Shown piece by piece: positions 4,387 to 47,798 of a DNA stretch of 64,000 nucleotides (positions are counted from its first letter, which is position 1; each line of letters starts with the position of its first letter). The notes under the pieces are model-generated. The model ran no database searches and had not been told where the DNA came from. It saw only the letters and a program-made list of their open reading frames with translations. A program made the position numbers and the translations under genes. Origin of the DNA: Escherichia phage SKA64; sequence record OM362897.1. One strand, written 5' to 3'.

Positions 4387-4387
4387 T

Positions 4388-27553: not shown

Positions 27554-30229
27554 TTAGTCGTAATATTTCAAACCTGTAATGAACTTCGATCCCCAATCCG
27601 CACTTGCGGCGGTGAACGTCAACATCCAAGTTGTAGCTGTACCAGTGAAGACCTCTCGTTGCACAGTACCATCAGTGTGGTAAATGTCCACGCCAGTATG
27701 TCCATTCTTAGGAATAGTGAAGGTAACAGCACTGGTAGTGTCTCGTGCATAAGAACAAACAAATGGTGTCCCCGCCCAAACTGGATTTGTCATATCGCCC
27801 ATCTCAAGCTGTGGAACCCAAGCAATAAGACCTGCCGTACCATCTCCTGCGAAAGTGTCTGATCCACTTGCATTCAAAGCTATAATCTCATAGGTTATAG
27901 ATGCTTGTTTGGCAACTGTCACTTTGTGTAGAATTACACGATACCAACCATTCCCCATATCGATTATGTTTGCATCTGCACCTGTAAATGTTCCAGCTAC
28001 AAGATCATAAGTCCCTTCGTTAATCTCATCTCCTGAAGTCAATTTGAGTTTCACTTTAGTGATCCCATCTGGCTTCAAGAATACGGATGCCGCCCAGTGC
28101 TTACCTGCTGTAATATCAGAAGCTGTATTCACTGCTGATAAAATATGTTGTCCTGAAGTTGTAGAAGGTGTTAACTTGTAAGTGTTAGCTGTAGTTCCAA
28201 CCGGAGAGTTGATTGTTGATGCTGTGACTGTCAAGTTCGTCTTCAACCACGGGGAAGCTGTTGTCAAGTTATTGTTGATAAAGATATGTGTACGGTTGGC
28301 TGCTACAACACGTCTACCTTGTGGAGTTGTACCAACATATTCTAAAGGTGCTACGGGAGCAGAACTCTCTGTAGGTACAAGGATATCTCCAGAAGCCCTG
28401 GCATAACGGTTACTCCTGTTGACCTTTACATCCGCCGGAATAGTTTCTTGCGTCAAATCATAGTCCATCACAATCACCACAGCATTCACTGTGAGATAAG
28501 AACTATCTTCGGCAGTTACCACACCTTGATAAGTTGCTCTACAACCGATACGACAACCTCCATCAGCAACCGCTGTAATAACGCCTGTAACGGGGTCAAC
28601 TGTTGCTACCGTAGGGTCATTAGAGAAATACTCAACAACCATACCAGGTAAGCTTGCTGCTCCTGTTGGCGTTATTTCTGCTACCATTGTTTGTGTTGTT
28701 CCTACATCCATCGCAGATAAGCTAGGAGTGTAAACGCTCAATGTTGAAGCATATCCTCCAGAGGTATCTGATAAAGTTGTTCCTTCGGCGTTTAAGGCTG
28801 TCATACCTGCATCAAAACCACCTTCTGCATGGAAAGTCATTAAACCAGTAGATGATATTGTCATGTTTGCAGGGGCAGAAGAAGTGTATTTAATATTGAA
28901 AAGTTTACCTCCTTCTGGGCTAACAGAATGTGTCAACTGTTTAGTTCCACCTACAATACAAATTCCTAAAGAATCTGTAGTTAAGCCAGTTGCCAGAATA
29001 TCACCCGTAATCACGGAGCTTGCTATTGGTGTGAATTTATTATAGTTTAGACCGCTATTGAACAGATACGAGGCTTTCCCATCTTTCCAAATACCGGAAT
29101 AATACATATCTCCATTATAAACGAAAAAGGTTCCTTGATAACCTAATTGGTTAGTAACATCCATATTCAGCGTATGAACGCTTGTGAGCTTGTTTATATC
29201 CCAAGAACCCACTCCTTCAGGTTTAACTGGTTTTCCCACTTGGAGTGGATCTCCGCTCGCAGAATCATACCCCAAACCTAAGTTTGCAGTGTAGTTCTTA
29301 CCAATAGCCCACAAGGAATTATTGATCCCAACGAAAAAAGAGTGGCGGCTTGGTGGAAACTTCCATGTTGAGAAACCTGCTGCAAAGGTATCCAGTTTAG
29401 TGTAGGTTGTTTCTGTATTAGACCTAACATATAAGTAGTTTACTGTACCCGTGCCACCGGAGGTATCTCCTACAACTATTGTCTGGGAAACTGTATTGAT
29501 GTAATCTTTGACATACACTGTTTCAGTAGCGGATATCTTAGCATTGACAAAAGCTGTTGTTGTGTTATTATTACCTGCTAAACCTTTACTAGCTCCACAA
29601 ACACGCAAGGTTCCCACATTGTTGACATAAGAGCATTGGTTGTAACCTGCATCAAAAGCAACTGCTGCACTTGTTATCTGACGAGGAGTAGAAACTTCGT
29701 TAGTAGTACTTGCACCTAAACTACCTACTGTGTTTTGACCAGATCCGTAAAGAACACCACTATTCATTAACCAGAGAGTGTTGTTATATCCTCCCTTAAC
29801 CTCTTTAAGATTGGCTAAAGAGATAGTCCCTGTTATTACAGATGGAAAGCTGGTCCAAGTAGTTACACATGCGTCCGTACCACCTGCTGCTATAGATCCT
29901 ACCAATCCTGCTGTCAATCCTGAATATTGCCATCCCCCACTGTTAGTTTTAATAACAAAACAACGATCTGCGGTAAACACATCCGCTACTACAGTAGAAG
30001 CTAAGTGGAAATTATTGAATCGTGCACTACGAGTTCCATCTGCAATTTCACCAAAAAGGTTTGCGCCTTGAGTAAACAATCTACCATCATTAAGCAAAAT
30101 TGCTAAACTGCTATTAGAATTACCAGCATTATCTGGGTAATCTAAAGTGATTACTTTTTTAACAATACCCGCTGGCAGAGGAACGACACCAGTGCTGGTC
30201 ATAATAGTAAATATTGGAATTGGAAACAT
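27554..30229 (-). CDS. tail fibre protein (891 aa)
   Basis: Last gene of late operon; Gly/Thr/Ser/Asn-rich beta-rich composition; GGAGGG RBS. Confidence 0.45.
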   Translation of the reverse strand: MFPIPIFTIMTSTGVVPLPAGIVKKVITLDYPDNAGNSNSSLAILLNDGRLFTQGANLFGEIADGTRSARFNNFHLASTVVADVFTADRCFVIKTNSGGWQYSGLTAGLVGSIAAGGTDACVTTWTSFPSVITGTISLANLKEVKGGYNNTLWLMNSGVLYGSGQNTVGSLGASTTNEVSTPRQITSAAVAFDAGYNQCSYVNNVGTLRVCGASKGLAGNNNTTTAFVNAKISATETVYVKDYINTVSQTIVVGDTSGGTGTVNYLYVRSNTETTYTKLDTFAAGFSTWKFPPSRHSFFVGINNSLWAIGKNYTANLGLGYDSASGDPLQVGKPVKPEGVGSWDINKLTSVHTLNMDVTNQLGYQGTFFVYNGDMYYSGIWKDGKASYLFNSGLNYNKFTPIASSVITGDILATGLTTDSLGICIVGGTKQLTHSVSPEGGKLFNIKYTSSAPANMTISSTGLMTFHAEGGFDAGMTALNAEGTTLSDTSGGYASTLSVYTPSLSAMDVGTTQTMVAEITPTGAASLPGMVVEYFSNDPTVATVDPVTGVITAVADGGCRIGCRATYQGVVTAEDSSYLTVNAVVIVMDYDLTQETIPADVKVNRSNRYARASGDILVPTESSAPVAPLEYVGTTPQGRRVVAANRTHIFINNNLTTASPWLKTNLTVTASTINSPVGTTANTYKLTPSTTSGQHILSAVNTASDITAGKHWAASVFLKPDGITKVKLKLTSGDEINEGTYDLVAGTFTGADANIIDMGNGWYRVILHKVTVAKQASITYEIIALNASGSDTFAGDGTAGLIAWVPQLEMGDMTNPVWAGTPFVCSYARDTTSAVTFTIPKNGHTGVDIYHTDGTVQREVFTGTATTWMLTFTAASADWGSKFITGLKYYD

Positions 30230-30240
30230 TTAAACCCTCC

Positions 30241-30267
30241 ATAAAAAGAAAGCCCCTTTCGGGGCTT
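30241..30267 (-). terminator. rho-independent terminator after collagen-like fibre gene
   Basis: Minus-strand hairpin AAGCCCC-GAAA-GGGGCTT followed by TCTTTTTAT. Confidence 0.5.
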
Positions 30268-30270
30268 CTG

Positions 30271-31920
30271 TTATCGTGTTACAACAACCATGTCCACGAT
30301 ATCACCCACACCAGGATACGTTAATTGCAAAATTGTTACTGCGTTAGCAGTAGTTGCTATTTCTGTATCATTTAGTGCTCCATAAGACGCATCTAGTGTA
30401 ACCGTGTGTCCCGTTGTATCTTGAATCAAATAAATCATTGCTGAAAACGCTTTAGGTTTTGTAGAGCCAGTGACACCAGGCCATGCTCCAACTGTCAGAG
30501 CGTCAGTTACTGTAACAACATACATATTGGAAGTTCCAGAAGGAGTCCAAGATGCTCCAGAGTTGGCAGTAGTTGTTTCAAGTTCCATGAAACCTGCTGT
30601 AACTCTAGTTGGTGTTATAGCTTCCGTAGGATCTGATCCTGATATTTCGATCCAGTTTCCATCAGAACGACCATACGTCAAGCCGTCTTGAGGGGCTTCT
30701 GGTATACTAGGAAGAGTTCCTATAAGTGTCCACGTAGAAGAATCTGTTTTCTTAAACACTGCTCCAGTGGTAGTATTGAAGGCGTAATCATTGATAACAC
30801 CGTCTCCTGCGACTGGATTAGTTGTTGCTACAAACCACTGTGCGCCGTCCTTACCGTTGGTCCCATCAGTACCGTTGGTTCCGTTTGTTCCAGGATCACC
30901 CTTATCTCCTTTATCCCCTTTTTCACCTTTGTCGCCTTTAATACTTCCCATGTCAACAAAAGATGCGGAATTGGTGTCTTGATCGTAGGTATAGATGTAA
31001 AGATTACTAGTGTCTTCAGTTAAGTAAGCATCACCATAGTTATTGTAAACAGGGAGAGCTTCACTGTTCGGAACATGACCTTTAGCTGTAATTGATGTTC
31101 CTCCGAGACTGCCAACATTCATCCATTCCGTAGCATCTTGGACCCAAACATACAAATCATTATTAATTTTATATGCATCACCTACTTCTCCCGTCGGAGG
31201 AAGTTCAGCTTCGCTGTTCAGAACCCCGATAATCTCTAAGCCTGATCCTGTTGCGCCTACTGGTCCTTGTGGACCTAATTCGCCTTGTGGACCTCGCTCT
31301 CCTTGATCACCCTTGTCTCCTTTTGGACCTTTAAGCGAGGCAATAAAATCTACTTCTGTCCCTTCATTACCAGCATCCAGCCAACTTTGATATGCAGATT
31401 TCCCTTCATCTCCATCTGTTCCATCTAGACCGTCTTTACCTGCCTCACCTTGTGGACCTTGAGGACCAACAATATTACCCATGTTGACCCAAGCTGTCCC
31501 ATTAGAGACATAAAGATTACCACTGATAGAATAAGCTTGGCTTACGTTTTCAGAGTTAGGTTGTGGTAAGTTACTTGTAGAAGGCAAATCTCCACGATAA
31601 TCAAAACCGTTGGCGTTAACACCAGGTGCTCCCTGTGGCCCTGTAGGACCAACATCGCCTTTATCACCTTTTATAGAGGTAAGAAAATCATAAACAGATC
31701 CTGTATTACCATCTGCCAACCATACCTCGTAAGCTGATTTACCTTCTGGTCCAAGAGAAGAAATAAGTTTCCAAACAGAACCATCCCAAGCGTAGATTAC
31801 ATCGCCTACGATATAACCATCCCCTGCAACGTTACCTGTAGATGGTAGTTCACTAGTGCTTGCTAATGATCCTTTAATATTGAGTTGAGCACCAGTATCC
31901 CTTTCAAAGAGGCAAGCCAT
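30271..31920 (-). CDS. tail fibre protein with collagen-like Gly-X-Y repeats and phage-fibre repeats
   Basis: Runs such as GPQGPQGEAGKDGLDGTDGDEG, GDKGEKGDKGDKGDPGTNGTNG; repeated GKSAY..WL..GN.G...F..SLKG modules. Confidence 0.65.
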   Translation of the reverse strand: MACLFERDTGAQLNIKGSLASTSELPSTGNVAGDGYIVGDVIYAWDGSVWKLISSLGPEGKSAYEVWLADGNTGSVYDFLTSIKGDKGDVGPTGPQGAPGVNANGFDYRGDLPSTSNLPQPNSENVSQAYSISGNLYVSNGTAWVNMGNIVGPQGPQGEAGKDGLDGTDGDEGKSAYQSWLDAGNEGTEVDFIASLKGPKGDKGDQGERGPQGELGPQGPVGATGSGLEIIGVLNSEAELPPTGEVGDAYKINNDLYVWVQDATEWMNVGSLGGTSITAKGHVPNSEALPVYNNYGDAYLTEDTSNLYIYTYDQDTNSASFVDMGSIKGDKGEKGDKGDKGDPGTNGTNGTDGTNGKDGAQWFVATTNPVAGDGVINDYAFNTTTGAVFKKTDSSTWTLIGTLPSIPEAPQDGLTYGRSDGNWIEISGSDPTEAITPTRVTAGFMELETTTANSGASWTPSGTSNMYVVTVTDALTVGAWPGVTGSTKPKAFSAMIYLIQDTTGHTVTLDASYGALNDTEIATTANAVTILQLTYPGVGDIVDMVVVTR

Positions 31921-32053
31921 TGTGCTTCTGTTCCAACAAAACCATTATCAAGTGCGATCTGATAAGCCGATTTACCCCTTTCAAAGAGGCAAGCCATTGT
32001 GCTTCTGTTCCAACAAAACCATTATCAAGTGCGATCTGATAAGCCGATTTACC
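31899..32053. repeat. exact 77-bp direct tandem duplication (two copies)
   Basis: Copy 1 about 31899-31975 and copy 2 about 31976-32052 are identical by eye; spans the 3-prime end of ORF 31904..32371 and the ATG of ORF 30271..31920. Confidence 0.85.
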
Positions 32054-32371
32054 AGCTTCAGGTATTGTTTCCGACAGATCATCAATTTGTTGCTGCATTG
32101 CCGTAAACTTGGCATTGATAATTGCTATGTCATCAGCGGTCCCAACACTTTGCCATGCAAGGGAAGAAATACCACCTGTGGTGGCTGGCGTAGAGTTTGC
32201 TGGAACTACTTTAGGAAAAGTTCCTTTCCATTGGTAATAATTCCCTTCTGCTGCTAACAGCAAAACTTCACGGGAATTACGTAATGTAAAACCTGCCTCA
32301 AAGCTGCGACGTTTTCGATAAGTAGCTTCTACCAGATCGGCTATCGCACTATTAGGTCTTGTTAAATTCAT
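31904..32371 (-). CDS. tail fibre N-terminal segment (155 aa), C-terminus altered by tandem duplication
   Basis: Ends with a GKSAYQIALDNGFVGTEAQWLASLKG fibre module, then 23 out-of-frame residues derived from the second repeat copy. Confidence 0.45.
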   Translation of the reverse strand: MNLTRPNSAIADLVEATYRKRRSFEAGFTLRNSREVLLLAAEGNYYQWKGTFPKVVPANSTPATTGGISSLAWQSVGTADDIAIINAKFTAMQQQIDDLSETIPEAGKSAYQIALDNGFVGTEAQWLASLKGVNRLIRSHLIMVLLEQKHNGLPL

Positions 32372-32432
32372 TTATCTCTCCTATCATTAGACCATTCTAT
32401 TGGAAGAAGAGGGGAGATTCCCCTCTATTCCA

Positions 32433-35400
32433 TTAGGTTGTTGGCACATCTACTACTGGCGTTGGGCGAATAACCGCAGTATTACCTACAGAAACATTAC
32501 TGGAATCATTAGGTATGGTTTTAATTCTAACTCCAGCACTTGTAGGCGTTACAATTGGATCTGCAATGTCTATTTTAACTGGGTTAGTCCACGTATCATT
32601 ATCTTGATAAGGTGCACGAGTAATAACTGTGTCCAAATCTGCTCCACCTACGCCAGCACCAGGAATACGAATACGTGTCCCTGCTGACAGAGGGTAATGA
32701 TACAACCAAGAAGCATTTGTTGCTGTCCCGTTAGGAGTCAAGTTCTGTGTCAGGAAGGTATCTCCTGCCTGTGTAGCTCGAATACCGAAAGCTGGGATAT
32801 CTGGAATATATGCCCCACTTGTTGTTACAAGGAAGAACGTATTATCCGCCTTGACTATCATATCACCTTTGTCAAACTCTTTCCCTGTTGGGAAATGCAT
32901 TCCATCAATGTTTCGACTAGGATTAGGCTCTAAGTAATAAACTTTGCCCGTTGTCCCTACAATAGCTCCAATACCACCTGCGATATTGGTATACATATTA
33001 GCTTCAACATTACAGTTGACACGATGAATATCCGAGTAACGGCAACGGCTCCACTGTGGACGACCAGTAACCATCGTCTTGCCATCTGGGTAACAGTTTA
33101 CGTTAACCATTTCAAGAACAGATTTTTCTCTACGGAAGAATCCATCATAAAATGTCCCTGGACCAGATTCAGGTTGACCAACACAATCGAAGATATTACA
33201 GGTGATGTTAGACATTGAAAGCCAAGAAGCTATACCGAACAACTGCAATGCAGCGCAACGAATATTTTCAAAGCTAACTCTGTTTTCATAACCTGGCCCA
33301 GCGGAAACTCCCGCAAAAACACGCCCAGTTTTGGTGTGAATGTTACGAACAGAATAGTTAAAGCATGGGTTTGAAGGTCTACCCTGTGCCGGAACTACCG
33401 GATTACCCTCTTCGTCCAGAACTGCGTTAGTTCCCCACTCCAAATAAATCATACGGATATTACTTGCAAGTGTGCTACCGTCTGTTTTAGGCTCTCCGTA
33501 AACACCGTCAATCGTAAAATCTTTACTTCCATACATTACAACTGCGCCAGTTGCCAAACCTGTCCCAACAGATACGGTCTGGTCTGGATCGCCATGAATG
33601 TTTTCGATAGAGATATTACGACCAACTTCTACGTGGACAATCTGACGACAACGTTTTGCAAAAACGTTACGAATTGTAATATTCTTACAATATTGATCAT
33701 CAGGGATTCCGTAACCATATGGTCCTTTACCAGCTACACCGATACCGATACCCCAGTTGGACAGAGGAATAGGAGCGTTAGTCCCATCGATATTAGACAG
33801 GTAAATATTCTCAATCACACAACCATCGTCATAATGTTTATTGATGACGTTCAGTTCTATTGCATCACCTTGCATGTCCATGAAGGTAAGGTTACGGAAG
33901 ACACCACGTGTTACTGGTTCCCCTGTTCCTTGTTGAAGGATGCCATACAACCCGTTTTTAAAAGTACAGTTATCAATTTCAAAAGTACCTGATATTGGGT
34001 TGCCTTGGAATACCAAGCTACCAACTTGACCTGCGCGAGGAGCACCGTCCCACAAACAATCGAACATGCGCACAGCACCACCCCAATACATAACACGAGA
34101 GTTACGGAAAGTTGTGCCTTCTACTGTAGCATTTTGCACACGATAGTCGCGTTGACCACGGAACACACCCCCACGCAAAGTGATACCTTGAATATCAAAA
34201 GAGCTTGTCGTGAAAGTCATATCGCAACCGTAAGCATCGAGAATCTTGCTTTTCGAAGCTTTTGCTGCTAACAGTGCCGCCTGGAAAGCTGCTTCTGGTG
34301 TGGTATAGGTAGTTGTATTGTTAGCAAATTCTGACAAGTAGACAACATCGAATAAATCGTTGTATGTTCCACCACGAGGGGTTAACAGTCCTTCCGTATT
34401 AGTTAGAACCCATGCGTTTGGACCTAATCCACCGCTTGTCTCTAATGTGTCAGAGGCCAAAATACTTTTTGGTAAACTTCCAGCCCAACGATAACGACCA
34501 GCACCACGTCCAATCGTCTGATTTTTAGCTGTCAGGGTTACGTTATTACCAAAGCTTGTAGGCAAATGGACAAATTGTCCACGTTCAACAGCCAGTGCGG
34601 AAAGATCTACAGATCCCCCAGAATAAGTCATTACTCCAGAAACAGACAAAGATGTTAAAGTTCCTGTGATGTTAGGAGGTAATGTGTAGGAAGACTGTGC
34701 TACCGGATCATACAGAGCTTTAATCCCTGTTAACGATTGCCCTGCTGTTGCGTAAGCCACCTCATCATCTAACAAACCATATTTACGAGCAATAGTTTGC
34801 AGAGGGACTTTATCCATGCTTTCTGTTAGTTCTTCCGTTTTTGTTTCTAAACTAACAAGACGGTTCTCTAGATTAGGATCTGTATCTGCTGAAGCTACGA
34901 TTTTACCAATATAAGCGAAAAGCTTGTTTGGCAGTCCTGTTGCAGGATCGTGTCCCAAAGGTTCAGATAAGATGATCTTACTATCTTCTATACGGAAAGC
35001 TTCCCCCAGAACCTGAATAACACCATTGATCGTAACAATAGCACTATCAAAGATGTAAGGAGGACTGATTACTGTTTCATAACCAGTTGCACCAGAATAT
35101 ACCCAAGGTGTGACTTCTGTTGCCAATTGTTCTGTCTTCAATCCCCACAATACCCAGTTGTTATCTCCTACTGGAGTACCTTGCATAGGGATTGGGTTTA
35201 CCAATGTAGCATTAGGAGCATAATAATAACCGCTCAATACCCCATTCTGAAAATAACGAAGTTGGTTAAAAACTGTTTCGTTTGTGCCTTGCGCCCAATC
35301 CAATGGGCTTTTAAAGAAAAAGTTGTCAACAAGGGCTTTTCTCAGGGTTGGTATCAACCCTGATTCTGTTTCAATACTCTCTGTAGCACTTCCATTAATA

Positions 35401-35486
35401 ACATCATGGAGTTGGTTAGATGAGAAAATAACCAGGTCTACGCCCTGTTCGAGAGACGTTGCTGGATATGTTGGGAATGTTGCCAT
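32433..35486 (-). CDS. tailspike protein (1017 aa), probable beta-helix enzymatic spike
   Basis: Size, Asn/Gly/Thr/Val-rich repetitive composition, position among receptor-binding genes; no catalytic motif assigned. Confidence 0.45.
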   Translation of the reverse strand: MATFPTYPATSLEQGVDLVIFSSNQLHDVINGSATESIETESGLIPTLRKALVDNFFFKSPLDWAQGTNETVFNQLRYFQNGVLSGYYYAPNATLVNPIPMQGTPVGDNNWVLWGLKTEQLATEVTPWVYSGATGYETVISPPYIFDSAIVTINGVIQVLGEAFRIEDSKIILSEPLGHDPATGLPNKLFAYIGKIVASADTDPNLENRLVSLETKTEELTESMDKVPLQTIARKYGLLDDEVAYATAGQSLTGIKALYDPVAQSSYTLPPNITGTLTSLSVSGVMTYSGGSVDLSALAVERGQFVHLPTSFGNNVTLTAKNQTIGRGAGRYRWAGSLPKSILASDTLETSGGLGPNAWVLTNTEGLLTPRGGTYNDLFDVVYLSEFANNTTTYTTPEAAFQAALLAAKASKSKILDAYGCDMTFTTSSFDIQGITLRGGVFRGQRDYRVQNATVEGTTFRNSRVMYWGGAVRMFDCLWDGAPRAGQVGSLVFQGNPISGTFEIDNCTFKNGLYGILQQGTGEPVTRGVFRNLTFMDMQGDAIELNVINKHYDDGCVIENIYLSNIDGTNAPIPLSNWGIGIGVAGKGPYGYGIPDDQYCKNITIRNVFAKRCRQIVHVEVGRNISIENIHGDPDQTVSVGTGLATGAVVMYGSKDFTIDGVYGEPKTDGSTLASNIRMIYLEWGTNAVLDEEGNPVVPAQGRPSNPCFNYSVRNIHTKTGRVFAGVSAGPGYENRVSFENIRCAALQLFGIASWLSMSNITCNIFDCVGQPESGPGTFYDGFFRREKSVLEMVNVNCYPDGKTMVTGRPQWSRCRYSDIHRVNCNVEANMYTNIAGGIGAIVGTTGKVYYLEPNPSRNIDGMHFPTGKEFDKGDMIVKADNTFFLVTTSGAYIPDIPAFGIRATQAGDTFLTQNLTPNGTATNASWLYHYPLSAGTRIRIPGAGVGGADLDTVITRAPYQDNDTWTNPVKIDIADPIVTPTSAGVRIKTIPNDSSNVSVGNTAVIRPTPVVDVPTT

Positions 35487-35489
35487 TAA

Positions 35490-35825: not shown

Positions 35826-35834
35826 AGTGATCCC

Positions 35835-37442: not shown

Positions 37443-37451
37443 TTAAACTCC

Positions 37452-38081: not shown

Positions 38082-38083
38082 TT

Positions 38084-39571: not shown

Positions 39572-39813
39572 TAGTCATCCTCTTTGGTAGATTGTGATCT
39601 GCCCCAGCGTAAATCAATAAGATTTTTCATGAGGCGAGAAGGAGTTATCATGAAAACAAAAGCCCAACCCATCCATTCAGGAATTTCTTTTTCTATTCCT
39701 AAAAAGATAAACATGCCTGTCATAACCGACATGCCTACAGCGTTCCAGACTTTCGTAGAACTGACTTTATTATCAGGATATGTACAGAACATACCTATTA
39801 AAAATTTTCTCAT
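39571..39813 (-). CDS. small membrane protein (80 aa)
   Basis: Two hydrophobic segments and charged C-terminus. Confidence 0.4.
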   Translation of the reverse strand: MRKFLIGMFCTYPDNKVSSTKVWNAVGMSVMTGMFIFLGIEKEIPEWMGWAFVFMITPSRLMKNLIDLRWGRSQSTKEDD

Positions 39814-40154
39814 AGTGCGTTCTCATTACTTTTTAAATCACGATATACAGCTAATTCCCCAAGGTCTACAGAACCCGCTGAATGCACAAGTACAGCAGCA
39901 CTAAGACTAATGGCAGTAGTACCTGGGGCAATATCAGCAGGTAGGGAATACGCCCTTTGCGTCTCCTTATCATAGATAACCTTATACCCACCCAAATCCA
40001 CACCAATCTGGACAATGGTGTACGCGATAGCTGCAACGTAGAACCATTCGTTCAGTGTAAATCCGAAGAAGAACCGACTGGCACCATCAGCCGCAGCGGT
40101 CCCGACGATAGGAGAGGCTTTAAGGATCTCATTCTTGAAGTCTAACTCAATCAT
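39810..40154 (-). CDS. hypothetical membrane protein (114 aa)
   Basis: Hydrophobic central region. Confidence 0.4.
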   Translation of the reverse strand: MIELDFKNEILKASPIVGTAAADGASRFFFGFTLNEWFYVAAIAYTIVQIGVDLGGYKVIYDKETQRAYSLPADIAPGTTAISLSAAVLVHSAGSVDLGELAVYRDLKSNENAL

Positions 40155-40201
40155 AAAAACTCCAGTTTAAAGCGGGTCGTCCTTGACCCAAAGTTGTTAC
40201 C

Positions 40202-42751
40202 CTACGTTCGTGAGAACCCAAAGTTGGCTTCCATTTCCACCAGATAAGTACCAGCAGTACGCTTGAACACACCGATTTTACCTGAAGTCACCGCAGTGGT
40301 GTATAAAGGTGTCGCAATGACTCTGCCATCATCTGTTACAATTGTAAATGAGTAGCGACCGCTAGCGTCTGTGTAGACCCACACAGTAAACCCGACACCA
40401 ACGAAGTTAGTGGTCGTAATATCACCGAGTAAAGTCCAGTCAGTTGGTTCAGCGCCCATCCATGTACCAATGGCCATTCTGCCATCACTTGCTACACCAA
40501 CAAGAACAGCGGTCCCAGACAGCGAGTCCCAGTTCAGTGCAACGTAGGTGTTTAGGCCAAGACCAGACTTGACGTATACTCTGCCTACCAGTGTTTGTTG
40601 GTTAATATAAGCATCAGACGTCATTGCCCCAGCAGAGCCAGAGAATACGTTAGACAGCACATGGTCATCAAACTGGTTCCCGTCAGAGATAAAGCTAGTT
40701 GGAGCACTAGACTGGGAGATTGCTAAACGTGTCATCGGAATGTTGATACCATCGGTTCGCACACTGCCAAACTTGAGAGCGGGATACCATACATTTGGTA
40801 ACTGACCGCCATTAATTATGGTTATAAGATTTAACCCCTTACGCAGGCGTCCAGCATAAGTTGTAAGGGTCTTAGATCCTCCAAGATATGATGAGGCCAG
40901 CTTACCTACAGCAAATTTAGCGTATGAGTTTATTTTAGTATTCCTTTCAGAATATGATGGGTCAGATTCATTCAGCTCGATGCCAGCAGGTGCAATAACC
41001 CTTAAGTGGTTGTAATCCCCAACCTTACCTGCACCACTCCAAGGCTCCAGCACTGTCAGTGTCATATCCTCCTCCTCACACCATACAAACGTGTTGAATG
41101 TAATATTCTCACCATTTGTTGGTGCCAGAGGTATATATCCAAAGGTATTCAGCTTCGGAGTACCACTAGCTTTATGGTAATGAGGACGGAGGTGATTCTG
41201 TGATGGATAAGTCACGGCATCCCAATAGTTCTCTACCACTGACGTGTTCATCATATCACCCGGACGTACACGGCGAACGTACTTCTCACCAATGGTCTGC
41301 ATGAACATGGAGCCACCCATAACCCTCTGTCCCAACTCTTGTGGGTGAGTAGTATCGTACTGAGGTTCCTTCTTCACGTAGTAATAATCCATGCCTTGCA
41401 TGTTGATGTTAGACATCTCGGTAAGGTCTGGACCTAAGTTGAAGTAGTCGATACCCAATGTCTCGCACATCTGACGCTTGGTAGCTCCCTCGAAACCAAT
41501 ACGCGACCAGTCGTTGTCGTTAACAGTCACGATACCAACCGTGCATCCATAACCCCATGCCTTGCGTACAAACATGTCAATCTGATCTCGGTATGTCGCC
41601 ATGTCCTGACTTGAGTCATTCCACCCCATCGCTAAGAGACAGACGCGAGGTGCTTTGGCCCCATATCGAATGTTACCGAAGAACCCTCGGTCAAAGTTAC
41701 GGTATCCCCACCCATCGGATAACTTAGCTCCTGATAGAGACGCGTTATAAACTTGGAAGATAGCCTCACTAGACCAGCGTGACTGGACCGTGTTCATAAG
41801 CCACTGCCAGTGAGCACACCAAGAGTGTGAACCTCCAGCCAGACTGTGGTTGTAGTCTATCGGAGCAGCCAAGTCTCGATTGGAATCCAGAGGAGGGGAA
41901 CTCCAGTTCTGTTTACCCCAAGCACCGTCAGTGATGGAGTCACCAACAATGCCAATAGTACCATCTTCATACCTTTGAGAACGAACAGCTTCTAATAGAA
42001 CGGATTTAACAGAACGTCCATTACCATTGGTTGCCTTCTCTACGTCAAACAGCATGTCACCACCGTAGAACTGGTTCTTGACGATAAGTTTACCTTCGCC
42101 AACGAACTTACGGACATCATCATCAGGCAGCAGGTTTACACGGATAGTTACATCACGAGGGATGTAAATCTTACCGGCAAACGCATAGGCTGCAGCACGG
42201 TTATCAACCGAAGTGTTAAAGTTGATGTTCGGTACATAATAGACGGACTCAGCTCCTTCGAACTTGAAGCGTCCCCTCAGCATTTCTGTACGCAACGTTG
42301 CATCACCAACATTAACCCACGCGCCTAATCCAATTCCACCAGTGCTATCTGGAGTTGAACCAGCAGCTACTGTTTTGGGAAATTCGCCCCCCCACGTATA
42401 GCATTGACCGCCAGCAATGTGCCAAACAGCATCTGTTGCCTTAGTGACTGTAGCCCCTTCTTCAAAACTACCATCAACAAGAGTTAACCCAGCCTCGGCA
42501 AGACTACGACGCCACTGTTCACGATCATTAAGAAGATTGTTATTCAACTCTTCCTGAACAGTATTACCATTTGAGGATTGTATTAAATCTGCTCCATCTG
42601 TATCTTTCAACTGGGTGGCTAAAACCACCCCAGTGTCAGTAAGAAAGTTGGAAACTGTGCTTTTAACAGTTTTATCAGGTTGATCTAAAACCAGGTAATC
42701 TGAACCATTAACTTTTGATGTTTCGGGTAAATTAGTAATTGTAGTTGACAT
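40202..42751 (-). CDS. tailspike protein with SGNH/GDSL esterase domain
   Basis: GIVGDSITDGAWG (GDS block I) and downstream DTTHPQ (DxxH block V); N-terminal anchor region. Confidence 0.6.
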   Translation of the reverse strand: MSTTITNLPETSKVNGSDYLVLDQPDKTVKSTVSNFLTDTGVVLATQLKDTDGADLIQSSNGNTVQEELNNNLLNDREQWRRSLAEAGLTLVDGSFEEGATVTKATDAVWHIAGGQCYTWGGEFPKTVAAGSTPDSTGGIGLGAWVNVGDATLRTEMLRGRFKFEGAESVYYVPNINFNTSVDNRAAAYAFAGKIYIPRDVTIRVNLLPDDDVRKFVGEGKLIVKNQFYGGDMLFDVEKATNGNGRSVKSVLLEAVRSQRYEDGTIGIVGDSITDGAWGKQNWSSPPLDSNRDLAAPIDYNHSLAGGSHSWCAHWQWLMNTVQSRWSSEAIFQVYNASLSGAKLSDGWGYRNFDRGFFGNIRYGAKAPRVCLLAMGWNDSSQDMATYRDQIDMFVRKAWGYGCTVGIVTVNDNDWSRIGFEGATKRQMCETLGIDYFNLGPDLTEMSNINMQGMDYYYVKKEPQYDTTHPQELGQRVMGGSMFMQTIGEKYVRRVRPGDMMNTSVVENYWDAVTYPSQNHLRPHYHKASGTPKLNTFGYIPLAPTNGENITFNTFVWCEEEDMTLTVLEPWSGAGKVGDYNHLRVIAPAGIELNESDPSYSERNTKINSYAKFAVGKLASSYLGGSKTLTTYAGRLRKGLNLITIINGGQLPNVWYPALKFGSVRTDGINIPMTRLAISQSSAPTSFISDGNQFDDHVLSNVFSGSAGAMTSDAYINQQTLVGRVYVKSGLGLNTYVALNWDSLSGTAVLVGVASDGRMAIGTWMGAEPTDWTLLGDITTTNFVGVGFTVWVYTDASGRYSFTIVTDDGRVIATPLYTTAVTSGKIGVFKRTAGTYLVEMEANFGFSRT

Positions 42752-42759
42752 TTTTACTC

Positions 42760-44913
42760 CTATATATAAAATTTTTGTGTTGTTACTAAATCTTCTCCAG
42801 ATTTAGTGGCTAATGTAATTCCACTTATGGTGGCAATCTCAACATTTACCTGTTTAAGAGTGATATCCTGTAAATAAACGTTCAAAGGCACGTTACCCAT
42901 ATAGAAAACTTGGGATTGAGAATTAACTACCGTGATAGAATCATGCATTATTTGAGGATAGGCCCATATATATTGTGTAAGTCCGTCAAACTTATTGGCG
43001 TTCAACACTATATTACCTATAATCATTTTCCAAAGATACGTGCGGTAGTTTGATTCAGGATCAAAGCCATACAAAGGTGCAAGAGTAGCATCTGGAACAA
43101 AACCTGCAAGATAGTGAATATCAGAATATTCAAAACCTAATTTTTCATGTGGTATGGTAATTGCATCAAATGCTTTCATCATTTTACCTTCCAGAAGCCA
43201 GTCGTAACACTCTGAACAGTAAAAATCAAAAGCTTCAGGAATGTAGTAATCAGACGGAAAGTTAACTTTCTCCATCAAACCGTTGCCGATAATCGATGGT
43301 AAGAACGGAAGCAATGTTACTTTAGCTCCTGGGTAAGTTGCTCTAGTATCTGTTGCAAACTTTGTAACTCTTAATCCTAGTTTACGAGACAAAAACGCAT
43401 AGTATTCGTCAAACGGCGTTCCTGTTTTATAATTATCTATTGTTCCTGCATCTTGTGCAAATAAGCCAGTTTCTGTGTTGAATGCCAGTTTGGTAGTGTA
43501 ATCGTATATGCAAGGCATTTTACTTGCTGTATTATACCACCACCAAGGTTCACCAATTTGAATGACGACTGGAATGTTATTAGCTTGAGAAATAGATGCT
43601 ATTTTGTTAATAACATTTTGCAAATATTCCATGCCTTCGTCAATAGTTGGAGACAACACGTAACTAGGAGGCTTATACCCTGTTGCTGCAAGAGCATCGT
43701 TCCAATCATGCTGGACCCATTCAACAGGACAAACTGTGCTCATCAACTCAAAACTCAAAGAGTTCATTATTGTGTAGCCATTTTCATTAGCTATAGAATG
43801 GAAACTGTTAAGCCAAGCTTCTGTAGCCGGATTCAGGAAAACAGATCTATTTAAAGCCCAAGATGTTCCGTTCCATGAGAACTCATAATAGTGAGACATT
43901 CCGTTGTAATGGTTAATCATTCCACGATAACCTAGTGCATATGTATTATAAATAACTCTCTCTGGAGTCAGGTTATACATATCATCATAAGATGTGCACA
44001 TGCGAATATCATGTTCAGGCTGGACAAGGTTGCTGACTTTCATCATACTGTAACCAGAAGTAGGTTCAAGAAGAGTGAAAGTAAACCAAGCCTCTTGACT
44101 GGCAATAGGTACAATCTCTTCTATTTCTTCATACCTTGCTGTAATCAAAGAGAAGAAAATATTATCTACAGCATTCATATCCAAAGGAATATCATTATTA
44201 GGGCCAGAAAAGATATTACCAAAATCTAACTTTATTGTGGCTGTTTTACCATCTTCTGAAATATCTGAAGCGTAGAATCCTAAACTGACATAATGAACAC
44301 TTTTATCCAGGAGAGTTACAGTCAAAGTCGGCACCAAAGGTTCTTCTTTAAAACCTGGCATGTTTTGACTAATTTCCATTTTAAACCAAAGTTTCTCTGA
44401 ACTTAAATCTGTGTGAGGCAAATACCCAACACCTTTATGGTCATATTTGTCAACTGTGCTCCAGATAACCCCTGCCAAACCTGCTGTTGTTCTGTTTACA
44501 AATCTTGCAGTAAAAGAGTCTCCATGAGATACAATAGAACAACTTTCCGTTGCTTGAGAATCTATTGTCCAATACATAGGAGAGAACATTTTAACGTCTT
44601 TTGTAGTCCAAGTTATTGGAGTAGTATTTTCTTGGATAGTAGTTATAATACAATTGATGGTTGTTTCAACCATCATGTTATTTTGACTAATCCCTGAAAC
44701 TTGGAGGGAGAAGTTAAGATCTATTGAGTTCTTTGGTCGTTCAAATACTTCAACCACAATAGTAGCAGAATCAGCATCATCAGGGAACACAAGTGTTCCC
44801 GATTTTGCAATATAATCTCTACCAGCGACTGCTGTTCCGTCAACAGTCGTGTAGTTAAATGAACTCGCATTTACTCTCTTGTCTCGCGTGACAGTAAATA
44901 TAGCTTGTTTCAT
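42760..44913 (-). CDS. large tail-associated protein (717 aa)
   Basis: Size and position between baseplate and tailspike genes. Confidence 0.45.
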   Translation of the reverse strand: MKQAIFTVTRDKRVNASSFNYTTVDGTAVAGRDYIAKSGTLVFPDDADSATIVVEVFERPKNSIDLNFSLQVSGISQNNMMVETTINCIITTIQENTTPITWTTKDVKMFSPMYWTIDSQATESCSIVSHGDSFTARFVNRTTAGLAGVIWSTVDKYDHKGVGYLPHTDLSSEKLWFKMEISQNMPGFKEEPLVPTLTVTLLDKSVHYVSLGFYASDISEDGKTATIKLDFGNIFSGPNNDIPLDMNAVDNIFFSLITARYEEIEEIVPIASQEAWFTFTLLEPTSGYSMMKVSNLVQPEHDIRMCTSYDDMYNLTPERVIYNTYALGYRGMINHYNGMSHYYEFSWNGTSWALNRSVFLNPATEAWLNSFHSIANENGYTIMNSLSFELMSTVCPVEWVQHDWNDALAATGYKPPSYVLSPTIDEGMEYLQNVINKIASISQANNIPVVIQIGEPWWWYNTASKMPCIYDYTTKLAFNTETGLFAQDAGTIDNYKTGTPFDEYYAFLSRKLGLRVTKFATDTRATYPGAKVTLLPFLPSIIGNGLMEKVNFPSDYYIPEAFDFYCSECYDWLLEGKMMKAFDAITIPHEKLGFEYSDIHYLAGFVPDATLAPLYGFDPESNYRTYLWKMIIGNIVLNANKFDGLTQYIWAYPQIMHDSITVVNSQSQVFYMGNVPLNVYLQDITLKQVNVEIATISGITLATKSGEDLVTTQKFYI

Positions 44914-44921
44914 TTTACCCC

Positions 44922-47798
44922 TTACTCGGTAACGTCCACACTAATGTTTGCCATTGTCAAAACAGTAAGTGCAGGAATATTGCTCGAATCCAAAACAGGT
45001 AATGCATTTTGGGGATTAAGTTTTTTGTATAAAGCATACAACCCAAAACCACGTAACAACTCTCCAGCGTGGAAGCCAAAGAAGACTCCGTTATCACTGT
45101 CTGGTCTAGGAGCAGCACTCCAACAACCATTCATAACGTGATTAGGACCAAGAACAATATAGTTTTCCTGAATAAGTTCAAAACAGCGGTCTGCTACTAT
45201 TTTAATGTTAGGAATTTCTGAATCATATCCAGCCATCCCCATTATAGCACATCCCGCCATAAAGAGCGCAGACATGTGACTTGTAAAGTCATCTACAGGT
45301 GCAGCCACTTCTCCGTTGGGATAAAATATTGTTGGTGTTCTTCCTTCGTTGTTATCTTGGAACCACTTCAGGTAGTTGATCCAGTTTTTACAAACTGTTA
45401 AAAGTTTTTCAGGAACTTCGGCTCCTCGTCGCTTTAGTTCGTATACCGTATGACACGCACAGAAGAATGCTCGTGCTTCATAACCATCCCAAGCTTTATC
45501 GTTCCAATGATACATTGTGAACTCATTTTTGTTTCCATATTTATGAGCATCCCAACGATCCCAAACATAAGCTTGTGCCATTGGCCCAGGCATTACAGGG
45601 GCAAACTTATTATAAAACCACATTTGTGAATCATATAAAAAGTCTATACTGTTGTTCATACGAACCCAGTCAATATCTCTCCCTTTAAAACAATATAAGG
45701 ATGGGTATTGATAACCTGGGTAAGGAATACCACGCCAACCGTCATATAATGCTGTGTTAGGATCACTAATATTGGAAAATGGAATGATTCCTGGAGTATA
45801 ATTCAAACTGTCAAGTTTGTAGTCCAGTATTGTACAATCTCCAAGTTTTGCTGTATAAGGATTTTCAGATGAAACTGTAACCCTGAAATACATTGTGTAA
45901 TCATCGCCAGCGGCTGAAGAATACAAAGATGGGATATCGTTAACGCAATAAAAGTCGATTGCCCCTGTCAAGCCATTTGCAGGTTCAGAATCCAATGCAA
46001 TATTGATCTGATCAACAGCAGTCAGGTTTATTGACGAAGGTTTTGCCTCTGTGTCTTCGTGATTAGGTTGCCAAGTACTTAATTTGAAATCGGCAGGACT
46101 TAAAGCTTTAGTAACCCATGCAGAATTTGTTTTTTCTAACATGGCCCACCATCTCCAACCTGCGGAATCCGTAATAGTGATGTTAAAATCATCTGCGTAT
46201 GAACGATACGTAATAGATTTTAAATTGGCTGTTTTAGTTGGTGTTAACCAAAACCCAACAGTAAAACCACCATCTGAATCCATATTAGCAGAAACTATCT
46301 GATCACTATTTGTCCCAGCAATACCAGTTGCATATTTATATTGTATCACAGTATTGCTTCCCCAGTCAACAATAATTCTGGGTTCAGCAATAATATATAC
46401 ACCACCTCCAGGAGGTTCGGTGCGCATAAAACTAGATAAAGGTATATCCATCTTAGTCATATTAGCTGCACCAAGAGGTAAGCCACAACGATATGTCACT
46501 GTGTCTGTTTCACTCTTAGTTTTGCTTAATTCTAGCTCTGGACGGAAAAGAACACCTTCCCCTGCATCATCTACACCTTGAAACTCAATACGCAGTTTTG
46601 AATTCTGATCTACTCTGAACCAAACTGCCTGTTGTTCTAGAGTTGTTTGTGCTGAAACATCTTGGCGAATTACTGTGTATCCTAATTCGTCACGAGAATA
46701 TTTAGGTATTGCTGTAGATGGGTATGAGTAATCATACGAGATACCATCTGTAAAAGGAATTATTGCTGTCGTAGATCTACGGAAGAATTTATCAAACATA
46801 TCGATGTTTGAGTAGTCTTGACACAACAATAAAGAAGATTGCCAGCAAAGCCAGTATTTTCTCTCTCCTGTGATCTGATACATCAAGTAGTTTGCATCAC
46901 ACCACCACGTTTCAGCATCGGAAGCATTGTCTTGATAACCTAACTCTACCGGAACGTTTACAGGACGGTTATGCCACATCTCATTACGCTTAAGCAGATA
47001 TCCACCGTGTTCTACAGGGTTGCATGTAGCGTAGTTGAATTTATAGTCACCGTTCACAGAAGCGTTTTTAAGTTGCACTGTTCCATATTCTGCAAAGCTA
47101 TGCCCAGTGGATAAAATATTACCATCCCAATCAACTTTACGTCCTAGACGATCTATAATCCATTCAACGTCCCACTGATCTCCATATTCTTTCCAGTTGG
47201 TTGAACCATCTGGGTTAGTTGCATACACTGTTGCGTTAACAGAGTTCCAACCAAGATTACCATTGAAAGCAAACCAAGCTTTATCTAAGTATTCTCCCCA
47301 ATGTGGCGCACCTTTAGGAATAACAGTCCTTCCGTTAATCCAAGTCATCATGCTACCTTTGAACCCGCCGTGCGTAGGATACCCATCATCTGTGAGAGGG
47401 TAATGTGCTAAACGTGGTTCTTTACCATTGATGATCCAATTGGGACGATATTTAGCTGGAGGATCAGGAATAGGTTGGCCCCCGAAGAAGTGATCTATAT
47501 AGGCTTGCCAATACTTCTCGGCAGATTCAAGATATTTTTTATCCCCTGTAGCCAAATATGCATAAGCAAAACCAGTGATAAGCACAGATTGACCTTCGGT
47601 AGTAGCGTCACCGTTTGGTTGCCCTTCCTGCGCTGTCCAGTTAATAAAGTGTCTGTTGTTCGCCAATACGTTTTGTGGGTTGATAATGTAATGCTGAACC
47701 GTAGGATCTATGGTAAGCCCAGTATTTCTTTCCAAAAACTGAACCAACCCTTCAATCAACTGAAACGTGTTGTCAATATTGTGCTTAACTCTTGACAT
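44922..47798 (-). CDS. large tail-associated protein (958 aa), possibly polysaccharide-degrading
   Basis: Trp/Tyr/Asp-rich composition; no catalytic motif assigned. Confidence 0.45.
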   Translation of the reverse strand: MSRVKHNIDNTFQLIEGLVQFLERNTGLTIDPTVQHYIINPQNVLANNRHFINWTAQEGQPNGDATTEGQSVLITGFAYAYLATGDKKYLESAEKYWQAYIDHFFGGQPIPDPPAKYRPNWIINGKEPRLAHYPLTDDGYPTHGGFKGSMMTWINGRTVIPKGAPHWGEYLDKAWFAFNGNLGWNSVNATVYATNPDGSTNWKEYGDQWDVEWIIDRLGRKVDWDGNILSTGHSFAEYGTVQLKNASVNGDYKFNYATCNPVEHGGYLLKRNEMWHNRPVNVPVELGYQDNASDAETWWCDANYLMYQITGERKYWLCWQSSLLLCQDYSNIDMFDKFFRRSTTAIIPFTDGISYDYSYPSTAIPKYSRDELGYTVIRQDVSAQTTLEQQAVWFRVDQNSKLRIEFQGVDDAGEGVLFRPELELSKTKSETDTVTYRCGLPLGAANMTKMDIPLSSFMRTEPPGGGVYIIAEPRIIVDWGSNTVIQYKYATGIAGTNSDQIVSANMDSDGGFTVGFWLTPTKTANLKSITYRSYADDFNITITDSAGWRWWAMLEKTNSAWVTKALSPADFKLSTWQPNHEDTEAKPSSINLTAVDQINIALDSEPANGLTGAIDFYCVNDIPSLYSSAAGDDYTMYFRVTVSSENPYTAKLGDCTILDYKLDSLNYTPGIIPFSNISDPNTALYDGWRGIPYPGYQYPSLYCFKGRDIDWVRMNNSIDFLYDSQMWFYNKFAPVMPGPMAQAYVWDRWDAHKYGNKNEFTMYHWNDKAWDGYEARAFFCACHTVYELKRRGAEVPEKLLTVCKNWINYLKWFQDNNEGRTPTIFYPNGEVAAPVDDFTSHMSALFMAGCAIMGMAGYDSEIPNIKIVADRCFELIQENYIVLGPNHVMNGCWSAAPRPDSDNGVFFGFHAGELLRGFGLYALYKKLNPQNALPVLDSSNIPALTVLTMANISVDVTE

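Follow-up and report, generated by a model that had tools for sequence, protein, structure and literature searches.

The six large open reading frames (ORFs) considered here in Escherichia phage SKA64 (OM362897.1; the window is the whole 64,000-nucleotide stretch that was analyzed) very probably belong to a late-operon host-recognition locus of Phapecoctavirus (Stephanstirmvirinae), which, judging from homology, would encode a multivalent adsorption apparatus on a P2/Mu-type baseplate wedge. As a whole, this locus is the already published adsorption apparatus of phAPEC8-like and phi92-like phages, and nothing in it is new at that level. It is ordinary for the family except for an apparently podophage-derived tailspike and a fibre gene broken by a 77-base duplication, the latter maybe an assembly error. 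The original prediction, which saw in the region a receptor-binding arsenal, was broadly right, but the system is known and only one position in it is variable.

The window derives from a phAPEC8-like myovirus of the genus Phapecoctavirus. The 20.2-kb locus is 97.5-98.8% identical in DNA, over 85-89% of the locus, to about 25 listed Phapecoctavirus records, and 49 genome records cover at least 80% of it (DNA search). Annotated gene tables and per-gene tblastn revealed synteny with Ro121c4YLVW, phAPEC8, P3322, and PaulScherrer. The conserved order is hub, spike, sheath initiator, the proteins of 157, 958, and 717 aa, the variable spike, the wedge pair, the short fibre with its chaperone, a lipoprotein, the gp150-like spike, the collagen fibre, and the terminal fibre. 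Per-gene identity to relatives is 99-100% throughout, the body of the 849-aa spike excepted. The phAPEC8 genome record dates from 2012.

All six ORFs (891, 549, 1017, 849, 717, and 958 aa) were found on the minus strand exactly where they had been predicted (Table 1). They are genes and not chance frames, as DNA identity to annotated Phapecoctavirus genomes is 98% and all of the proteins have strong homologues. Five are intact tail proteins, but the 549-aa ORF is the 3′ part of a broken gene of about 674 aa. The six share one locus of about 20 kb without being contiguous: the genes of the baseplate wedge, of a Mu-type short fibre with its chaperone, and of a lipoprotein lie in between, as do small ORFs. 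Their domain make-up differs in every case (Pfam, PDB, and PHROG), as the prediction of a different body for each protein had it.

Table 1. Features in and around the host-recognition locus, in positions of the 64,000-nt window
Feature	Position	Strand	Basis or remark
Terminator-like hairpin, end of late operon	27523-27550	-	consensus scan
891-aa terminal fibre protein (TfpM1)	27554-30229	-	RCC1-like propeller, Ig-like domains, neck, head
Second terminator-like hairpin, past collagen fibre gene	30249-30268	-	consensus scan
Collagen-like tail fibre gene (TfpM2, phi92 gp151 position), split into 155-aa and 549-aa ORFs	30271-32371	-	
549-aa ORF, 3′ part of split fibre gene	30271-31920	-	collagen repeats
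155-aa ORF of split fibre gene	31904-32371	-	Tail_spike_N, 71.8 bits
Perfect 77-bp tandem duplication (2.0 copies), then G4-to-G3 loss	31899-32053		net +76 nt, frameshift
1017-aa tailspike: long N-terminal stalk, CBA120-like docking domains and Tail_spike_N, phi92 gp150-like body	32433-35486	-	
Mu-like short tail fibre of the fibre III type (353 aa) with its assembly chaperone (181 aa)	35835-37442	-	phrog_4465 (tail fibre, 353 aa), phrog_136 (tail fibre assembly protein, 181 aa)
Baseplate wedge pair, 495 aa (gpJ-like) and 209 aa (gpI-like)	37452-39571	-	phrog_6, phrog_4056
114-aa chimeric ORF: T7-type class II holin N-terminus (aa 1-52) and resident C-terminal part	39810-40154	-	
Putative imported T7-like podophage cassette: spike body and 5′ part of holin gene	40003-42366		blastn, GC
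849-aa variable tailspike: resident anchor (aa 1-154, with Tail_spike_N) and putative imported SGNH esterase body of G7C gp63.1 type	40202-42751	-	
717-aa conserved lateral-fibre protein (putative): Calx-beta, NCTSP_N, TIM barrel	42760-44913	-	PF03160, PF23844, PF23845
958-aa conserved lateral-fibre/baseplate-periphery protein (TfpL, putative)	44922-47798	-	predicted glycosidase-like (alpha/alpha)6 barrel, inserted beta-sandwich domains
157-aa small fibre-like protein (TfpS3), head of fibre block	47798-48271	-	phrog_9017 tail fiber protein
Tail sheath gene	55226-56599		annotated tail sheath in Ro121c4YLVW

Among the interspersed genes, the wedge pair has orthologues labelled baseplate wedge subunit or baseplate protein in Ro121c4YLVW and phAPEC8, is 80-87% identical between genera, and by the precedent of phi92 would be the attachment site of the fibres. 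TfpS3 is 99% identical to its relatives and 83% identical to the PaulScherrer protein. The phAPEC8 annotation has terminators at positions matching both minus-strand hairpins, and a promoter scan returned no enrichment (43 sites vs. 48.4 expected).

The 849-aa spike is the sole protein of the six that is new in this setting, and by homology it occupies the one exchangeable tailspike slot. Its anchor (aa 1-154) is 89% identical to the Ro121c4YLVW spike, and over residues 72-847 the protein shares 80% identity with the Kayfunavirus Pisces spike. The body taken by itself is 84% identical to that of Pisces and 55% identical to that of G7C gp63.1, a level of identity from which the substrate cannot be read, and O-antigen deacetylation by the spike is a prediction. 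The match to PDB 4QNL extends over aa 91-842 (E = 5.1e-255), and Pfam returned G7C_GBD (151.9 bits), G7C_C (106.8 bits), and Gp63_3rd_G7C (99.4 bits; cut-offs 26-27), together with Tail_spike_N (PF18668, 69.9 bits). Lipase_GDSL stayed under its Pfam cut-off (19.4 vs. 23.6 bits). The SGNH blocks are GDSITDG at 270, SLSGAK at 338 (with G at about 341), GWNDS at 376, and DTTHP at 466, all of them conserved in the alignment with the Pisces spike. Homology to 4QNL and these motifs suggest that the body is an SGNH esterase. This body is absent from all other Stephanstirmvirinae and myovirus records in a set of 50,697 phage records, and an exact-sequence look-up of the whole protein gave no match; an independent metagenome contig carries a spike with 847 of 849 residues identical, along with the same chimeric ORF described below.

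The spike body was very probably gained by recombination from a T7-like (Kayfunavirus-like) podophage. Positions 42366-40000 of the window are 78% identical in DNA to Pisces (blastn), the homology to resident genomes stops at 42300 and starts again at 40006, and the GC content of the cassette is 47.5% vs. 39% in its flanks. The left junction lies in the conserved end of the anchor domain and the right junction inside the donor holin gene. At the right junction stands the 114-aa chimeric ORF, which is 85% identical to the Pisces holin and matches Pfam Phage_holin_2_2 and phrog_920 (holin) as well as tailspike phrogs. Its resident partner is a 102-aa protein resembling a tailspike N-terminal domain; residues 30-114 of the chimera match the Ro121c4YLVW version of that protein (76% identity where the two align, with hardly any differences from about aa 51 on). 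Such a composition marks the ORF as the putative recombination scar of the cassette import. An identical ORF was returned once by the exact-sequence look-up, from an independent ENA contig (L006). A chimeric assembly as the origin of the spike-holin junction is unlikely, because the independent contig has the same junction.

We regard this as a clear case of cassette capture, in which a myovirus has acquired a predicted O-antigen esterase spike from a T7-like podophage and the holin-fragment scar is present in two independent sequences. It also narrows the proposal that the region suits host-range engineering, which holds for the spike slot (about 40.0-42.4 kb), the sole naturally exchangeable position, with defined junctions at the end of the Tail_spike_N anchor and just downstream of the spike gene, but not elsewhere in the locus. 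The expectation of new depolymerases was not supported. Five of the six large proteins are not new ones, because they are 99-100% identical to proteins of phAPEC8, Ro121c4YLVW, or P3322, and the sole variable body is that of a predicted esterase. The halo assay proposed with the prediction would probably come out negative for the 849-aa spike because an esterase deacetylates and does not depolymerize.

The second departure from the family is in the collagen-like fibre gene, which is out of frame in the sequence as deposited. Relatives have a single gene of 2025 nt (Ro121c4YLVW gp043, about 674 aa; TfpM2 is 681 aa in PMC12695924). Here, both ORFs match the same family, phrog_15437, the 155-aa ORF at 1-132 of 656 and the 549-aa ORF at 131-655 of 656. 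At the site of the lesion the closest relative, 3A1_SA_NWU, reads GAAAGGGGATACT. Removing one 77-bp copy and adding one base gives an intact ORF of 674 codons. The G-run counts at both junctions ruled out that the frameshift stems from a plain 76-nt duplication; they call for 77 nt and a lost G. A frame-restoring or programmed event was rejected as well: the frame stays closed with either lesion, with both together, and with a third copy, and the shifted copy contains a stop codon.

We lean slightly towards the duplication being an artefact of assembly or circularization, with no duplication of the fibre gene in the real phage. SPAdes usually has 77 as its largest k-mer, and an untrimmed k-mer overlap of a circular or terminally redundant contig before rotation yields exactly such a perfect tandem copy. 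The observed copy is perfect (TRF: 100% match, score 310), has a period equal to that k-mer, is the sole such repeat in the 64-kb window, and occurs in none of the 60 matching records of related phages; the 155-aa frameshift product found no match in the exact-sequence look-up. Furthermore, a second lesion, in a G4 run, falls right on the border of the repeat, and the reading frame is lost with either lesion alone or with both. If the duplication is an artefact, the adjacent G loss would be a contig-end error or a genuine polymorphism at which the assembly graph broke. Three points argue the other way. The other compared genes of the region are intact and as long as in relatives, so the sequence is not generally error-prone; the -1 frameshift persists once the duplication is removed; and the gene natively has related repeat units (GKSAY...LKG), which could favour real slippage. 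Whichever origin applies, the broken gene calls for caution from anyone annotating or using this genome, and the reads are needed as a check.

General indel errors had also been suspected from a split-looking DNA polymerase (ORFs of 264 and 865 aa), and this was ruled out: the polymerase is intact, and it is the Ro121c4YLVW polymerase that has an in-frame insertion of about 245 codons, absent in the window and without a Pfam match.

The 1017-aa protein is, by homology, a tailspike of the phi92 gp150 type, with its body matching PDB 6E0V (phi92 gp150; aa 426-1000, E = 1.4e-79) and the protein matching phrog_6117, "colanic acid degradation" (E = 1e-282). The link to colanic acid is putative, and for phi92 gp150 itself this degradation is given as a "potential role" (PMC13450770). 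Its N-terminal aa 226-399 match 4QNL, 5W6F, 4OJ5, and 5W6H, the N-terminal matches include CBA120 TSP1, TSP3, and TSP4, Tail_spike_N scores 37.6 bits, and a generic Beta_helix match is weak (16 bits). The protein is 100% identical to phAPEC8 gp088 and has only aa 1-215 in common with PaulScherrer. The 891-aa protein consists of a seven-bladed RCC1-like propeller, two Ig-like domains, a flexible neck, and a C-terminal beta-sandwich head. Pfam returned RCC1, Big_2, and WD40_RLD, the last at 42.4 bits and below its 150-bit cut-off; the AF2 model (pLDDT 78.6) retrieved UVR8 and RCC1 in Foldseek (TM about 0.70, normalized to target), and the C-terminal part matches the RcGTA head spike fibre 6TB9 (E = 5.7e-14). 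Its homologues agree in the N-terminal two thirds and vary in the C-terminal third, and a different PaulScherrer protein shares residues 586-891.

Conservation of the 958-aa and 717-aa proteins extends beyond the genus. The 958-aa protein is 83% identical over its full length to that of the other genus and 43-55% identical to homologues from distant hosts. It has a predicted (alpha/alpha)6 barrel fold (GH8-, GH76-, and GH105-like) at 9-14% identity, and the family alignment contains invariant Asp and Glu residues. The 717-aa protein is 99% identical to its relatives and 76% identical to that of PaulScherrer, also over its full length, with all three Pfam matches above cut-off (PF23844 at 60.2 bits and PF23845 at 265.9 bits, vs. 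a cut-off of 27; and PF03160). It matches both proteins in PDB 9lc0 (chains M and I; gp64, E = 5.5e-30; gp65, E = 1.7e-12); the gp65 match covers only about 72 of its 1382 residues. N4 gp64 and gp65 form a heterodimer (PMC13434306), and a BASEL fibre protein is homologous to the N4 gp64 deacetylase domain (PMC8594841). As judged from these matches, the 717-aa protein has domains in common with N4 gp64/gp65 and is not a member of that family: it comes from a contractile-tailed myovirus with a sheath gene of its own, and the ten-domain architecture of gp65 is missing. That it forms a sheath is unlikely.

Two fusions found in nature bear on where these two proteins sit: P0087 combines a Tail_P2_I wedge domain with a 958-like protein, and P0100 combines a 958-like with a 717-like protein. 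Because of them, we tentatively propose that the 958-aa and 717-aa proteins may form the proximal arm of fibre I, possibly also the branch base of fibre II, as a non-trimeric scaffold that is anchored to the wedge, processes glycans, bears the exchangeable spike, and is common to many myoviruses and prophages of Gammaproteobacteria. In phi92, the fibre I arm and the entire fibre II still lack an assigned protein (PMC13450770); the screen in that 2026 study was limited to fibre-shaped proteins, and proteins of the 958-aa and 717-aa types are not mentioned there. The fusions and the predicted folds offer a testable hypothesis for the unassigned phi92 baseplate densities.

The conservation of these two proteins also bears on the larger claim that the set comprises six independent, host-variable receptor binders, each for a different polysaccharide serotype, and a reservoir of new depolymerases. 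Every protein does have a distinct body, modules have been replaced between genera past aa 157 in the 849-aa protein, past aa 215 in the 1017-aa protein, and ahead of aa 586 in the 891-aa protein, and the family is known for broad host range. Nevertheless, we consider the claim improbable, since five of the six are nearly invariant within the genus despite hosts that include STEC O121, APEC, and Klebsiella- and Acinetobacter-labelled records, and the 958-aa and 717-aa proteins are conserved between genera much as the wedge proteins are, the former even across distant hosts. In addition, one of the six genes is broken, and the only variable body is an esterase by prediction and not a depolymerase. 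What stands of the predicted arsenal is a host-recognition locus with several fibres and spikes, not six independent serotype-specific binders.

At the other extreme, the six might be purely structural baseplate parts that neither bind receptors nor act as enzymes. Conservation of the 958-aa and 717-aa proteins is at the level of baseplate proteins, one 958-aa homologue is fused to a wedge domain, and catalytic residues are only predicted. We give this reading almost no credence, as the 849-aa protein is homologous over its full length to an experimentally characterized esterase tailspike (4QNL) and has its SGNH motifs intact, the 1017-aa protein matches phi92 gp150, and the 717-aa protein has its match in the receptor-binding sheath pair of N4; glycan-active or glycan-binding folds occur in at least four of the six proteins.

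For the host-recognition locus that we favour, we infer the placement of each protein in the virion of this phage from sequence homology. [quoted passage not shown] The gp150-like spike, the collagen-like fibre, and the 891-aa protein would form a second set of appendages, docked through shared domains of the Tail_spike_N type. A comparison of N-terminal anchors, suggested with the original prediction, did find Tail_spike_N (PF18668) in three proteins, the 849-aa, 1017-aa, and 155-aa ORFs (Pfam and internal blastp). During infection, the enzymes would strip or modify the glycan layers in turn (colanic acid, O-acetyl groups on O-antigen, and NGR), and the short fibre would then bind the LPS core and trigger contraction.

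The closest known systems are the loci of phi92 (a Justusliebigvirus), phAPEC8, and the BASEL phage PaulScherrer. The orthologous locus of the BASEL phages has been called a "nanosized Swiss army knife" (PMC8594841), and the 2026 cryo-EM study of phi92 found the gp145/gp146 wedge to bear three fibre types, each in six copies, with gp147 as fibre III and fibre II branching off at the base of fibre I (PMC13450770). All of these loci have the same gene order from the tape measure to the last fibre gene, an exchangeable spike slot upstream of the wedge genes, a gp150-like spike, a collagen fibre, a Mu-type short fibre, and a chaperone, and phAPEC8 shares five of the six large proteins at 99-100% identity. 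They differ in the occupant of the slot, which is a predicted G7C-type SGNH esterase here, the endosialidase gp143 in phi92, a 762-aa spike in Ro121c4YLVW, and a 921-aa spike in phAPEC8, and in the collagen fibre gene, which is out of frame only in SKA64. Justusliebigvirus is reported to lack the 891-aa propeller protein (PMC12695924), although the C-terminal head is shared.

[quoted passage not shown] As in CBA120 TSP1-4 and G7C gp63.1/gp66, Tail_spike_N and preceding docking-type N-terminal domains occur in the 1017-aa protein and the 102/114-aa ORF, and Tail_spike_N occurs in the 849-aa spike and at the N-terminus of the collagen fibre; branching has been seen in phi92. Unlike in SKA64, CBA120 has no counterparts of the 958-aa and 717-aa proteins, and the appendages of SKA64 would sit on a P2/Mu-type wedge. 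With the N4 gp64/gp65 sheath (9LC0, 9YF4), the 717-aa protein shares a gp65 N-terminal-like segment and a gp64-like TIM barrel, a domain that the literature ties to recognition of a conserved glycan, whereas the sheath of SKA64 is contractile and the 717-aa protein is half the length of gp65 and has an extra Calx-beta domain.

We recovered six large ORFs, all on the minus strand, by an ORF check of the window, exactly where the original prediction had placed six large tail proteins; the one of 549 aa, however, proved to be a gene fragment (see below). Over this 20.2-kb stretch, about 25 listed genomes published for Phapecoctavirus, vB_EcoM-P3322, Ro121c4YLVW, and phAPEC8 among them, show 97.5-98.8% DNA identity, and at least 80% of the stretch is covered in 49 records. 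The window is therefore assigned to a myovirus of the phAPEC8 type (Stephanstirmvirinae, Phapecoctavirus). On sequence evidence, the six genes are real genes, and other tail genes are interspersed among them (Table). GC skew changes sign in the window near 27.5 kb, which fits plus-strand replication genes giving way to a minus-strand late operon. The plus-strand gene of the family A DNA polymerase (22428-24926) lacks an in-frame insertion of ~245 codons present in Ro121c4YLVW (window 24073-24077 vs. 3790-4519 in that genome); a Pfam search of the inserted segment, possibly an intein or another kind of insertion, returned no match.

Table. Coordinates and content of the tail locus and its boundaries in the window
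Feature	Position	Strand	Remarks
Tape-measure, hub, and central-spike genes	48-54 kb		boundary on one side
958 aa	44922-47798	minus	
717 aa	42760-44913	minus	Calx-beta, NCTSP_N, TIM-barrel_NCTSP (Pfam)
849 aa	40202-42751	minus	
Imported segment	~42300-42366 to ~40003		first end inside region coding the conserved anchor end
114-aa chimeric ORF	39810-40154	minus	donor holin start plus tail of resident 102-aa ORF
1017 aa	32433-35486	minus	
155-aa ORF			first part of split fibre gene; carries Tail_spike_N anchor domain
549-aa ORF		minus	second part of split fibre gene; internal ATG start, no anchor
891 aa	27554-30229	minus	
Wedge pair (495 and 209 aa)			interspersed among the six large genes
Mu-type short fibre (353 aa) and chaperone (181 aa)			interspersed among the six large genes
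Lipoprotein gene and small ORFs			interspersed among the six large genes
Terminator	27.5 kb		boundary on other side

The ~11% of the locus left uncovered by relatives consists mainly of the 849-aa spike body, together with a 77-bp duplication, and this body is, as far as the compared genomes indicate, the only variable position of the locus. Along its full length, the spike is homologous to gp63.1, the esterase tailspike of G7C (4QNL, E = 5e-255), with every Pfam domain of that family present and the SGNH motifs intact. Residues 1-154 form the resident anchor (89% identity to the Ro121c4YLVW spike), and beyond it the protein shares 80% identity (78% at the DNA level) with the tail spike of Pisces, a T7-like Kayfunavirus; GC content is 47.5% in the imported segment and 39% in its flanks. 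Along with the spike body came the first 52 holin codons of the donor (T7-type, class II), transmembrane segment included; these now read in frame into the end of a 102-aa resident ORF, and the 114-aa chimera that results is a scar left by the import. The identical chimera recurs on an independent metagenome contig (ENA ERZ27275855), again in this phage context and together with a spike that matches at 847 of 849 residues, which marks the swap as a real feature of a lineage. At the protein level, this body type occurs in 16 of 50,697 phage records searched, none of them from Stephanstirmvirinae.

The resident 102-aa ORF lies downstream of the spike slot (20181-20489 in Ro121c4YLVW, 16978-17283 in L005) and is missing from phAPEC8. 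Its annotation reads "tail protein" or "tailspike protein", and homology links it to residues 249-302 of the 1017-aa spike. It resembles a piece of a tailspike N-terminal domain and is probably an older scar, the remnant of a previous spike exchange; alternatively, it may be a small docking adaptor.

The 549-aa ORF belongs to a collagen-like fibre (named TfpM2, 681 aa; PMC12695924) that is encoded by one 2025-nt gene in all relatives. Within this gene, the window has a perfect 77-bp tandem duplication (31899-32053; TRF: 2.0 copies, 100% identity), the sole repeat of its kind in the 64 kb, and right after it one G is missing from a run of four (GAAAGGGGATACT in the closest relative vs. GAAAGGGATACT in the window). 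Together, the duplication and the lost base (net +76 nt) split the gene into two ORFs, and deleting one repeat copy and inserting one base in silico restored an ORF of 674 codons. The duplication was present in none of 60 phage records matching the 31899-32053 stretch, and an exact-sequence look-up found no record of the truncated product anywhere. At 77, the period coincides with the largest k-mer that SPAdes usually applies, a common assembler setting, which makes an artefact a serious possibility, and we lean, without much conviction, towards an untrimmed circularisation overlap of contig ends as the origin of the duplication. The -1 shift, however, persists even when the duplication is taken away, and the remaining genes compared in the region are intact. 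The lesion could also be a real knock-out of the fibre in the phage.

The 1017-aa protein is 100% identical to phAPEC8 gp088; its body matches phi92 gp150 (6E0V, E = 1.4e-79) and its N-terminal region those of CBA120 TSP1, TSP3, and TSP4 and of G7C gp63.1. The 891-aa protein is predicted to combine a seven-bladed propeller like that of RCC1 with two Ig-like domains, a neck of low model confidence, and a beta-sandwich head that resembles the RcGTA head spike fibre. Domain and structure searches found no enzymatic domain in it, and it is therefore probably an adhesin. Its homologues vary in the C-terminal third, and PaulScherrer (Justusliebigvirus) carries the same head on a different protein.

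The 958-aa protein, which returned neither Pfam nor PDB sequence matches, is strongly conserved, with 99% identity within the genus and 83% to its PaulScherrer counterpart; phages and prophages of marine bacteria and of Enterobacter, Pseudomonas, and Stenotrophomonas carry homologues at 43-55% identity. A glycosidase-like (alpha/alpha)6 barrel is predicted in it, and Asp and Glu residues are invariant in its family alignment. Some homologues bear a P2 gpI wedge domain at the N-terminus (P0087), and others continue at the C-terminus into a protein like that of 717 aa (P0100; 52% identical to it). From these natural fusions and the conservation, we infer that the 958-aa protein is attached to the wedge and acts together with the 717-aa protein. 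In E. coli and Enterobacter, close homologues of ~940 aa (P0016-P0042; 53% identity) are encoded on chromosomal contigs as large as 5 Mb, and the family thus probably also occurs in prophages or tailocin-like elements. Homologues of 1,600 aa (P0089-P0107; P0093 searched for domains) extend a similar body at the C-terminus by a Gly_rich_2 domain (PF21722), a further sign that the conserved body may carry variable distal modules. The 717-aa protein matches N4 gp64 (E = 5.5e-30) and, over a short part only, gp65; it thus has domains in common with the two proteins forming the heterodimeric receptor-binding sheath of N4 (PMC13434306). As the BASEL study had noted (PMC8594841), a lateral fibre protein conserved in this phage group has the deacetylase domain predicted for N4 gp64, and later work tied the N4 glycan receptor to these phages (PMC11990801).

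The original prediction of an arsenal of several receptor-binding proteins on a branched organelle is right in general, and is already textbook knowledge for Stephanstirmvirinae. The expectation of new depolymerases fared less well: for five of the six proteins an essentially identical counterpart had already been published, and the variable 849-aa body is, by homology to G7C gp63.1, a predicted deacetylase of a known family, an enzyme type from which halos would not be expected. Nor do the six appear to be separate receptor binders, two behaving like conserved components of the baseplate periphery and one being broken in the window. Two modest leads are left: a spike cassette that passed from podophage to myophage and left a holin scar, and evidence from folds and fusions on the 958- and 717-aa proteins, which may help place the fibre I arm in phi92-type baseplates.

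Homology points to an exchangeable O-antigen esterase spike (849 aa), a gp150-type spike (1017 aa), N4 gp64/gp65-like domains (717 aa), and a Mu-type short fibre mounted on a P2/Mu-type wedge. The 958- and 717-aa proteins would form a conserved proximal part bearing the 849-aa spike, and a second appendage set would comprise the 1017-aa spike, the collagen-like fibre, and the 891-aa protein, docked through Tail_spike_N-type domains. Enzymes may first deal with successive glycan layers, after which the short fibre would bind the LPS core. In phi92, a member of this subfamily, the wedge bears three fibre types, six of each: the L-shaped fibre I, tipped by the variable spike, fibre II with its branch point at the base of fibre I, and the short fibre III, which reorients at contraction (PMC13450770).
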